A DNA stretch of 64,000 bases from a bacterium (GTDB lineage Bacteria > Actinomycetota > Acidimicrobiia > Spongiisociales > ZC4RG35), in contig JAHEJW010000014.1 in NCBI GenBank assembly GCA_024638655.1, positions 6,385 through 70,384 on the forward strand, written 5' to 3'. The translations under genes were made by a program, and so were the position numbers. Each line of letters begins with the position of its first letter. Position 1 is the first letter of the stretch. Positions 52,613-53,140 of this stretch are shown here, one piece after another. Below the pieces are notes generated by a model, which was given only the letters and a program-made list of their open reading frames with translations, was not told the origin of the DNA and did no database searches.

Positions 52613-52948
52613 TCAGATGGAAGCCGGGACGACCGCCGGTGCCAGGGCCTCCCTCAACTCCTCCAGCCGTTCCGGCACGACGCGGTAGAAGACCCAACGT
52701 CCTTTTCGCTCTCCGACCACGACACCTGCCTCGCGAAGGATCTTGAGGTGGTGTGAGACCGTGGGCTGAGCCAGCCCGAGGGGTTGCTCCAGGTCACAGC
52801 CACAGGCAGCCCCGTCAGGGGCGGCGGCGAGCATCGAGACGATCCTGAGCCGTACGGGGTCAGCCAGTGCAGCGAGCACCGGAGCCATTTCCGAGGCGGA
52901 CTCGGTGTCGAGAACGCCATCGAAGAGCGGGGTGCAGCAGTACTCCAT
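52613..52948 (-). CDS. ArsR/SmtB family metalloregulatory repressor
   Basis: ALADPVRLRIV, ACGCDL, QPTVSHHLKILREAG, ERKGRWVFY; additional N-terminal CC. Confidence 0.93.
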   Translation of the reverse strand: MEYCCTPLFDGVLDTESASEMAPVLAALADPVRLRIVSMLAAAPDGAACGCDLEQPLGLAQPTVSHHLKILREAGVVVGERKGRWVFYRVVPERLEELREALAPAVVPASI

Positions 52949-52952
52949 CAAT

Positions 52953-53006
52953 CATTGACAATAGTCGATATATCGAGGATGATCCATATATCGAAGATCG
53001 TCGATA
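52953..53006 (+). promoter_or_regulatory. Sigma70-type promoter overlapped by two ArsR-type operator boxes
   Basis: TTGACA (52955-52960)-N17-GATGAT (52978-52983); boxes CATTGA-N6-TCGATA (52953-52970) and TATCGA-N6-TCGATA (52989-53006). Confidence 0.8.
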
Positions 53007-53022
53007 CGAAAGGAGAACGCGC

Positions 53023-53085
53023 GTGCGCATTCATCGCCAAGGCTCGGGATGTTGCGACGGCGGTAGTGGCTGCTGCTGCTGCTGA
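53023..53085 (+). CDS. Cys-rich micropeptide MRIHRQGSGCCDGGSGCCCC (20 aa), candidate metal(loid)-binding peptide
   Basis: AGGAG RBS (53011-53015) 7 nt before GTG; own promoter/operator upstream and hairpin downstream; 6 Cys in last 11 residues. Confidence 0.7.
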   Translation: MRIHRQGSGCCDGGSGCCCC

Positions 53086-53097
53086 GATCTGACTGTT

Positions 53098-53140
53098 AGT
53101 CGGCGGAGGCATGTTCATGAGAGCAGCGCCTCCGCCGACT
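53098..53140. terminator. Strong hairpin between convergent genes
   Basis: AGTCGGCGGAGGC (53098-53110) / GCCTCCGCCGACT (53128-53140) perfect 13-bp inverted repeat; no U-tract. Confidence 0.65.

Follow-up and report, generated by a model that had tools for sequence, protein, structure and literature searches.

What does a repressor of the ArsR/SmtB family control when no gene for arsenic resistance or metal export lies beside it? This question is raised by a locus at positions 52,613 to 53,140 of a 64,000-nucleotide stretch of an actinobacterial contig (JAHEJW010000014.1 of assembly GCA_024638655.1; the whole stretch analysed is termed the window). An earlier note on this DNA had proposed that the sole local target of the repressor is a 20-residue peptide with six cysteines, encoded by a divergent short open reading frame (sORF) and acting as a minimal metallothionein or arsenite-sequestering molecule. 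We compared the locus with its relatives in other genomes. By this approach, the sORF was established, at the level of sequence, as a real gene that is linked to arsR, is under coding-type selection and has a monocistronic layout; it is predicted to be translated in vivo. Its product is proposed to be a metallothionein-like micropeptide that binds As(III) or soft metals under the control of ArsR, a reading to which we give a probability of about 0.55.

A cysteine-rich short open reading frame divergent from arsR

The sORF occupies 53023..53085 of the forward strand, with a GTG start at 53023, 20 codons and a TGA stop. The encoded peptide, (M/V)RIHRQGSGCCDGGSGCCCC, has six Cys among its 20 residues, arranged as CC-x5-CCCC at the C-terminus, and is devoid of aromatic residues and of His. 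It is preceded by a Shine-Dalgarno (SD) sequence, AAAGGAG (53009..53015, forward strand), of which the AGGAG (53011-53015) is separated from the start codon by 7 nt; both this ribosome-binding site and the six-Cys frame were recovered as first described. This is the only SD-led short open reading frame of its type in the 2.87-Mb genome.

The repressor gene lies on the reverse strand at 52613..52948 and encodes an HTH_5 protein of 111 amino acids from the ATG at 52948. A TTG start at 52951 (112 amino acids) is offered by the list of open reading frames, and the ATG is the more likely of the two because the N-termini of the orthologs read M-[D/E]-x-C-C. The gap between the ArsR start and the next start codon is 74 nt and contains a promoter, two palindromes and the AAAGGAG. 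On the other side of the sORF, the next gene is convergent and encodes a PD-(D/E)XK nuclease (Pfam PDDEXK_1, E 9.5e-17), after which comes a VanW-like gene; the absence of any following ars or pump gene, as reported in the earlier note, was thus confirmed.

Recurrence of the pair in other genomes

Regulator loci were first collected from 61 related genomes. Among the best 30 ArsR loci of this set (46 lower-scoring ArsR matches were left out), the sORF was present at 7 of the 9 loci with an ArsR at least 65% identical to that of the window and was absent from two, L003 and L004. Two more distant ArsR loci, L018 and L026, also have a divergent, SD-led Cys-rich sORF, and it is from these 30 loci that the nine sORF genomes referred to below are defined. 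When species-representative genomes were scanned, the sORF was detected at 16/17 loci with an ArsR of at least 67% identity, and an sORF of this type at 0/63 loci with an ArsR of 61% or below; the carriers in this set are Acidimicrobiia. Metagenome contigs gave a similar picture, with the sORF at 11 of the 14 usable loci with an ArsR of at least 65% identity. The pattern scans demanded GGAG, GAGG or AGGA upstream of the frame; locus L114, which has GGGG as its SD, escaped them and was picked up by eye.

The peptide was also used as the anchor. A profile built from 20 peptides was run over 401 genomes belonging to the order and matched 33 of them, once each; 31 of the 33 are in the family of the window. 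Thirty of the 33 matches were fetched (G053, G133 and G181 were left out, and the G053 match lies in a 314-residue open frame and is probably false), and in 29 of the 30 an ArsR ortholog was found divergent from the sORF at a start-to-start distance of 65-164 nt. The profile search is insensitive, as the known positives G000 (the window genome), G026 and G031 were missed. Over the regulator- and peptide-anchored sets (9 + 30 genomes, 3 shared), the pair was verified in 36 genomes. The unpublished genomes G033, G039 and G050 are within the tallies of the 61 genomes, and G294 (locus L206) is among the 33 matches and the 29/30 loci. Conservation beside homologous regulators with synonymous variation, which the earlier note had named as the check on its claim, was therefore found by both approaches.

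At one locus, L216 (G354:C1:1047830-1050880, around 1430-1554), an intact sORF is accompanied by its promoter and by both palindromes, and the adjoining divergent gene is not arsR. A search of this genome, which is 88% complete, found no ArsR ortholog, the only match being a 38%-identical paralog; the sORF of L216 would thus be either constitutive or controlled in trans. That the sORF outlasts its neighbouring regulator at L216 is counted in favour of the proposed function.

A quick maximum-likelihood tree was built for 109 ArsRs, without L045, which is identical to L008. In it, 22 sORF-linked and 3 sORF-less regulators form one clade with a Shimodaira-Hasegawa-like approximate likelihood-ratio (SH-aLRT) support of 99. 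This clade adjoins the ArsI/CadI-linked ArsRs of Acidimicrobiia, and the regulators of L018 and L026 fall outside it, in an unresolved region of a tree that leaves 55 of its 106 inner branches without resolution.

Codon-position variation in the sORF

The peptides of the family are 14-26 residues in length, always in frame, and have a common core that consists of CC, a spacer of G-G-G or similar (2-6 residues), CC with up to two further Cys or with 1-2 small residues, and the stop. The N-terminal part is variable, and the residues ahead of the first CC are often acidic or Ser. Variation by codon position was analyzed over 23 distinct nucleotide versions of the sORF. In the two codons of the first Cys pair, positions 1-2 had zero entropy and position 3 had ~1 bit (TGT/TGC), and across the core of CC plus two codons entropy averaged 0.13 bits at the first codon position, 0.37 at the second and 0.84 at the third. 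All four synonymous Gly codons are used (GGC 64, GGT 20, GGA 13 and GGG 6). The SD and the ATG or GTG start are fixed at constant spacing with a free 6-nt spacer between them (1.5-1.9 bits), and entropy climbs to 1.3-1.9 bits directly past the stop codon. Taken together, the third-position variation, the fixed SD and start and the end of conservation at the stop indicate purifying selection on the translated peptide, a pattern unlike that of a conserved RNA or a relic.

For six of the peptides, no Pfam or NCBIfam family, metallothioneins included, was matched at E <= 10, very short and biased sequences being hard for these models. Gene callers usually apply length cut-offs that exclude open reading frames of 14-26 codons. 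Conservation and the profile test given below uphold the claim of a genuine thiol micropeptide that has its own gene, is linked to ArsR and would be overlooked by gene callers, and the family is of interest in its own right as a clean, phylogenetically supported functional micro-ORF (14-26 codons) that matches no curated family. The other half of the claim in the earlier note, that the peptide is metallothionein-like and sequesters arsenite, together with the release of ArsR by metal(loid) and the expression of the unit, is carried forward here in conditional form.

Architecture of the transcription unit

The promoter-like site of the sORF is at 52955..52983 of the forward strand and comprises a -35 box TTGACA (52955-52960), a 17-nt spacer and a -10-like GATGAT (52978-52983). 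With 10/12 matches it was the sole site detected, at 0.1 expected in shuffled sequences, and it agrees with the promoter first proposed for the unit. Operator-like palindrome 1, TCGAT-N2-ATCGA (TCGATATATCGA), at 52965..52976, lies within the promoter spacer; it is kept at >=80% across orthologous intergenic regions, and the whole genome has 8 matches to its pattern. Operator-like palindrome 2, ATCGA-N6-TCGAT, at 52990..53005, is positioned between the -10 and the ribosome-binding site, and of its 6 matches in the window genome 2 stand in tandem before a paralogous ArsR gene (contig C33). Two palindromes of a TATCGA-N6-TCGATA type, 36 bp apart, had been described in the earlier note. Both palindromes are present, but only the downstream one has the N6 spacing, the upstream one being N2, and the distance of 36 bp belongs to a family of direct repeats.

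By alignment of 21 orthologous intergenic regions, in which TTGACA is invariant, a conserved block was defined that reads, in order, TTGACA, TCGAT-N2-ATCGA, a -10-like ATC(A/G)AT, ATCGAAG-N-TC-N-TCGAT and AAAGGAG. No other intergenic promoter region of the 2.87-Mb genome has three or more TCGATA/TATCGA hexamers in a span of 70 bp; a crude operator search of the window genome found no second clustered operator site, and single palindromes occur elsewhere. In the window, only ~7 nt separate the ArsR start codon from the -35 box. Thus, the two divergent promoters must overlap, and the ArsR of the window is probably translated from a leaderless transcript.

The sole close ArsR paralog of the window genome (G000 contig C33:88428-88830; locus L113:3295-4330) has a MerB-like (alkylmercury lyase) gene after it and two tandem ATCGA-N6-TCGAT palindromes before it, which are 27 bp apart and match the operator type of the sORF locus. 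The tandem palindromes upstream of this paralog support ATCGA-N6-TCGAT as the DNA site of the family, and the presence of one operator type at both repressors makes cross-talk between the window ArsR and its paralog possible.

A G+C-rich hairpin (53098..53140) begins 12 nt past the stop of the sORF. Its arms (53098-53110 and 53128-53140), of 13 bp as originally noted, are 100% complementary, and its folding energy of -35.5 kcal/mol (z -5.7) was matched by 0/200 shuffled sequences. The right arm falls in the 3' end of the convergent nuclease gene (stop at 53115), and the hairpin is likely the terminator of the sORF transcript, common to both genes. A terminator scan detected no canonical terminator at the locus, and a search of Rfam over 52900-53200 gave nothing at gathering score, with only two sub-threshold matches at chance level. 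When 24 Acidimicrobiia-type loci were folded, a strong hairpin was found 3' of the stop in all 24; its sequence differs in L005, L018, L026, L041 and L052, and the peptide core is retained in all five. At L026, a more distant sORF locus, a run of short direct repeats (CGCCTTT / CCGCCTT-like units) was also observed ~60-330 nt downstream of the sORF, after the hairpin.

The stand-alone layout of the unit recurs among these 24 loci: the convergent nuclease gene comes next at 17, another convergent open reading frame at 1, the next gene is unresolved at 4 and the contig ends first at 2. No co-directional gene was found downstream of the sORF at the window locus, and none was demonstrated at any of the 24 loci. 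A search of sequencing runs for this DNA listed four, all DNA runs from a single study and three of them possibly the source of the assembly, and no RNA run.

Putative thiol ligands and partner genes of the regulator

The ArsR of the window matches Pfam HTH_5 (PF01022) at E 2e-14 and the NCBIfam ArsR/SmtB metalloregulator model NF033788 at 96.1 bits, above the cut-off of 55, in agreement with the family to which the divergent gene had been assigned. The top-scoring NCBIfam model was the Rv2640c-family equivalog NF041413; membership of that family was rejected, since the 101.1 bits obtained are below the curated cut-off of 155. The cysteines of the protein form an N-terminal pair (C5 and C6 in the numbering of the 112-residue form) and a CGC at 50-52 in the alpha3 region, as the earlier note had seen, and an N-terminal CC with a CxC motif is common to all homologous ArsRs compared. 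The closest solved relative was 6j0e_A, an arsenic-responsive repressor that we take to be the C. glutamicum protein (E 4e-18), with C15 and C16 of the chain aligned to C5 and C6 of the query. As described in the portion of the source drawn on here, As(III) in CgArsR is bound at a type 3 site by the Cys15-Cys16 pair and by Cys55 from the other subunit (PMC11868830). The same portion gives the R773-type (type 1) As(III) site as a CxCxxC in alpha3, with Cys32, 34 and 37 as ligands (PMC11868830). An R773-type site was rejected for the window ArsR, which reads C-G-C-D-L-E and is missing the third Cys.

To which genes are homologous regulators coupled? Sorted by divergent partner, 110 ArsR loci comprised 28 with ArsI/CadI, 25 with the sORF, 15 with ArsM (and 4 more with ArsM in an operon), 3 with an ArsC-like gene and two with other Cys-rich sORFs; 33 had none of these partners. 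The ArsI/CadI and ArsM partners exceed the cut-offs of curated family models. Since homologous ArsRs are paired with ArsM, ArsI/CadI or ArsC, arsenic is suggested as the inducer by this analysis, with Cd, Pb or other soft metals also possible.

Gene inventories of the 61 related genomes were compared between the 9 sORF genomes and the 52 others, and as these genomes are kin the counts are descriptive only. ArsM was detected in 2/9 sORF genomes vs 36/52 others, ArsI/CadI in 0/9 vs 11/52, Acr3 in 2/9 vs 18/52, and ArsB in 1/9 (a weak match) vs 2/52. The inventories are thus suggestive of the sORF standing in for ArsM and ArsI/CadI, not for Acr3. Five of the nine sORF genomes had no match for any of these four families; they include the window genome (93% complete), two genomes that are 99-100% complete and G020, which is only 55% complete. 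With these queries, the pair of ArsR and sORF was the sole arsenic-type module recovered in the five. In the window genome, Acr3, ArsB, ArsI/CadI and an above-cut-off ArsM were all searched for and none was found; a peptide sink would therefore be the only arsenic-type response found there. Many of the second ArsM-like methyltransferase matches in relatives hold one in-frame TGA (for example G006:C28:5990-6703, G011:C129:2083-2793, G033:C157:9844-10566 and G036:C34:1450-2160), and ArsM queries also match NCBIfam models named ArsM-domain selenoproteins; the TGA-bearing genes may encode selenocysteine-containing methyltransferases.

The ArsI/CadI partners carry Cys pairs of their own. Counted by eye, 25 of 28 ArsI/CadI homologs have a CC before the stop, with one pair in 10 and two pairs in 15. 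Examples of CC-tailed ArsI/CadI divergent from ArsR are at L010:980-1408 (reverse strand), L016, L021 and L051, and their tails are flexible. Six-frame translations of the 110 loci were searched with the sORF profile, and by this approach ArsI/CadI tails gave only E > 30 and the N-termini of ArsM only E 3-7. The sORF as a remnant of an ArsM N-terminus or an ArsI/CadI tail is disfavoured by this negative result, which also speaks against the possibility, raised in the earlier note, that the sORF aligns as a truncated piece of a longer ars gene. Because the profile misses the tails, common descent of the sORF and the ArsI/CadI tails is unsupported, and a functional analogy alone stands.

Proposed mechanism and its alternatives

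The mechanism that we infer from these features specifies an inducer, binding of ArsR to the palindromes, binding of metal(loid) by the peptide and a physiological role. A dimer of ArsR would occupy the two conserved palindromes over the promoter and early transcript of the sORF, and probably its own leaderless promoter, such that both genes are off. The thiols of the N-terminal CC and the CxC would bind a thiophilic metal(loid), As(III) being the likeliest, and ArsR would come off the DNA; MAs(III), Sb(III), Cd(II) and Pb(II) are alternative inducers. An mRNA of ~150 nt that ends at the hairpin would then be transcribed, and the thiolates of the peptide would bind the same inducer, with the drop in free metal(loid) feeding back on ArsR. 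The working part of the peptide would be the two vicinal-Cys groups split by a short Gly-rich spacer, CC-G-G-G-x-CC(CC)-stop.

Several points weigh against a metallothionein-like peptide of this kind. We found no bacterial precedent for a ribosomal peptide that sequesters arsenite stoichiometrically, and such a sink would also be costly. Six close ArsR orthologs (L003, L004, L031, L116, L117 and L119) have lost the sORF, which is therefore dispensable in some lineages; at these loci one palindrome is left before arsR, and the intergenic region runs into the nuclease terminator. The hairpin of the window has no U-tract (no T-run), belongs at least in part to the convergent gene and is still there in the sORF-less L003 and L004. 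Nor is there a clean complementarity between the sORF and efflux, as judged from the Acr3 counts in kin genomes given above. In the regulator, C55 of the 6j0e_A chain pairs with no Cys of the query, being aligned 4 residues before C50, in a loop, and the four-Cys layout of the N-terminal pair plus CxC presumably resembles that of Cd/Pb sensors as well. By this comparison, a Cd/Pb-type four-thiolate site would be as compatible with the window ArsR as a CgArsR-type site.

Conservation, coding-type selection and linkage to arsR would serve equally well a peptide that is functional and not a sink, such as a small metallochaperone or thiol-transfer partner to an exporter, an enzyme or ArsR, or a sacrificial thiol or redox buffer. 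ArsD, which carries vicinal Cys pairs, hands on As(III) via these pairs, and the free-swinging Cys-pair tails of ArsI/CadI look like arms for capture and transfer, not like stores. Potential acceptors are at hand in some genomes, where the sORF coexists with Acr3 (G012 and G044) or with ArsM (G023 and G035). However, the sORF has no linked partner gene, its neighbours being the nuclease and VanW-like genes, and no Acr3, ArsB, ArsM or ArsI/CadI acceptor was found in the five sORF genomes that lack all four families (among them the 55% complete G020); we regard a chaperone or redox role as rather unlikely. A precursor peptide that is modified or exported, either akin to ribosomally synthesized and post-translationally modified peptides or bearing a lipid or cofactor, or else a nucleator of an Fe-S or other cluster, with ArsR sensing a non-metal signal, is very unlikely. 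The short Cys-rich peptide with its variable N-terminal part and conserved C-terminal core would fit a precursor, and the ArsR family does include non-metal sensors, the window ArsR giving a weak match to the BigR model (54 bits vs a cut-off of 155). By contrast, the Cys ligands retained by the ArsR are of the metal(loid) type, none of the loci inspected links the sORF to a modifying enzyme, transporter or protease, and the peptide is without a hydrophobic or signal segment.

The runs of Cys codons at the end of the frame, 10-26 nt from a strong hairpin, suggest instead that the sORF may be a cis-acting leader that senses cysteine or thiols. Ribosome pausing on the terminal Cys codons would alter the hairpin and so tune termination or antisense read-through into the nuclease gene, or the transcript would be a small RNA, and in either case the peptide would be a by-product. 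Precedent exists in mycobacteria, where polycysteine sORFs are proven cysteine-responsive attenuators that are leaderless, stand first in polycistronic transcripts for cysteine metabolism and operate by ribosome pausing, according to the part of the report drawn on here (bioRxiv 10.1101/834739). Both groups are unannotated actinobacterial short open reading frames with consecutive Cys codons (here CC and CCCC) near RNA structure, and a Cys-rich sORF precedes ArsC genes in two Microbacteriaceae loci. The attenuators are leaderless first cistrons, whereas here the SD is conserved and 17/24 loci have no co-directional gene downstream. A leaderless attenuator was rejected on the AAAGGAG 6-7 nt before the start and a promoter -10 ~40 nt upstream (the start of transcription being predicted), and a first cistron with a sequestered downstream ribosome site was rejected on the convergent next gene at those 17 loci and on the absence of a demonstrated co-directional cistron at the others. 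The stand-alone layout and the conserved SD thus set the sORF apart from the mycobacterial attenuators. Furthermore, the Gly spacer and the acidic residues are kept at the amino-acid level with synonymous codons, neither of which pausing alone needs, the unit is under a metal-sensor operator and not in a context of Cys metabolism, and the hairpin sequence differs in the five loci named above while the peptide core stays. A leader or small RNA is accordingly considered distinctly unlikely.

Least probable of all is a functionless, decaying relic, either of an ArsI/CadI Cys-pair tail or of the Cys-rich N-terminal part of ArsM, that the ArsR-controlled promoter continues to transcribe. The sORF does fill the slot held by ArsI/CadI or ArsM beside homologous ArsRs, its regulators branch beside the ArsI-linked ArsRs of Acidimicrobiia in the quick tree, ArsI/CadI was found in none of the nine sORF genomes and in 11/52 others, and the ArsI/CadI tails have the same pattern of acidic residues, CC, spacer and CC-stop. 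A relic would not be expected to retain start, SD, frame, Cys, Gly and stop over 23 sequences and several genera with variation at third positions only, nor to persist after loss of the adjacent ArsR as in L216, and the sORF profile misses both ArsI/CadI tails and ArsM N-termini. Descent from an ArsI/CadI- or ArsM-type segment is possible and would be compatible with a present function.

The metallothionein-like reading can be extended, with a tentativeness that puts the whole of the extension at somewhat below even odds. The peptides, at 14-26 residues, would be the smallest known gene-encoded metal(loid)-binding peptides and natural 'tetracysteine tags'. Together with one ArsR they would form a complete, self-limiting module for sensing and sequestering arsenite or soft metals that replaces efflux, methylation and C-As lyase genes in several streamlined Acidimicrobiia. 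The family might be a freed Cys-pair tail of the ArsI/CadI type, and the Microbacteriaceae micro-ORFs described below would make such peptides a general and overlooked layer in the arsenic biology of actinobacteria. Should the peptide prove to bind arsenite or soft metals, ribosomally made metal-sequestering molecules would have a new lower bound in size, and models of arsenic and metal resistance would gain a missing component, sequestration without a pump. The motif, in which a Gly spacer joins two vicinal Cys pairs, and the tightly coupled repressor-operator pair may also provide parts for arsenic biosensors and bioremediation tags.

Relation to known thiol peptides and proteins

The layout of the locus resembles that of SmtB-SmtA, in which the gene of an ArsR/SmtB repressor diverges from a small Cys-rich gene and operator palindromes lie in the space between the two, and the presumed logic is the same, in that metal binding frees the sensor from DNA and the product binds metal. 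The peptide itself has the traits of the metallothionein functional class, being small, Cys-rich (6/20), without aromatics and under predicted metal-sensor control. SmtA and MymT are roughly 50-56 amino acids in length. By contrast to SmtA, BmtA/PmtA and MymT, the peptides here are of 14-26 residues (20 in the window), have no zinc-finger-like fold and carry 4-6 Cys in vicinal pairs. Unlike SmtB, the relatives of the window regulator are arsenic-linked, not zinc-linked. Full-text searches, with subscription-only papers and supplements outside their scope, revealed no description of an ArsR-controlled Cys micropeptide. Thus, as far as we have seen, a free-standing peptide of 14-26 residues with vicinal Cys in an arsenic-type ArsR clade is new, and its regulatory logic is that of SmtB-SmtA.

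Phytochelatins are short thiol-rich peptides of high affinity for As(III) and Cd that are made enzymatically from glutathione. The synthetic tetracysteine tag CCxxCC was engineered to clamp biarsenicals, and the CC-spacer-CC layout is common to this tag and the peptides, one relative (L007) being exactly CC-x2-CC; the window peptide differs in being natural, in its 5-residue spacer and in its four terminal Cys. The ArsI/CadI tails share with the peptides vicinal CC in flexible segments rich in Gly, Ala and acidic residues, two pairs with a short spacer before the stop and ArsR-controlled loci. They differ in that the sORF product is free-standing and has spacers of 2-6 residues vs 5-20, and no profile similarity was found. 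Vicinal Cys pairs are also carried by ArsM, according to the section of the source relied upon (PMC6138428). A further parallel, and the nearest concept met in the literature, is Zrd of Pseudomonas aeruginosa, which is described, in the part of the report available to us, as a formerly unannotated small Cys4 zinc-ribbon protein under the control of CadR (PMC12301328). Like the sORF, it is encoded by a small open reading frame, once unannotated, that lies between converging genes under a metal sensor, and the protein is proposed to sequester the inducing metal (PMC12301328). Zrd differs in having a MerR-family activator and folded zinc-ribbon domains, in being much longer and in coming from a different phylum (PMC12301328).

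Flanking genes and further cysteine-pair features

The conserved neighbourhood of the window locus is housekeeping-like, with nothing metal-related and no sign of a mobile element. On the ArsR side (51006-52609, forward strand) are a gene of the FAA-hydrolase family and a gene for a peptidase C26 / class-I amidotransferase, and on the sORF side, past the nuclease gene, is the gene for a protein with VanW plus peptidoglycan-binding domains (53934-55925, forward strand).

The Cys-pair tails of ArsI/CadI and a group of micro-ORFs in the ars operons of Microbacteriaceae are flagged here as related, unexplored features. The latter were observed at three loci (Pseudolysinimonas, Microbacterium and Amnibacterium), where different SD-led Cys-pair micro-ORFs of 13-26 amino acids, ending in CC, lie on the reverse strand in ArsR-controlled ars operons (L099:2290-2358, L109:2265-2342 and L107 about 1893-1934). 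Such a micro-ORF was absent from five other loci of the same ArsR clade. Of the three, two are just upstream of ArsC-like genes, in one case in an operon that also has a MIP channel, and one is downstream of ArsC.

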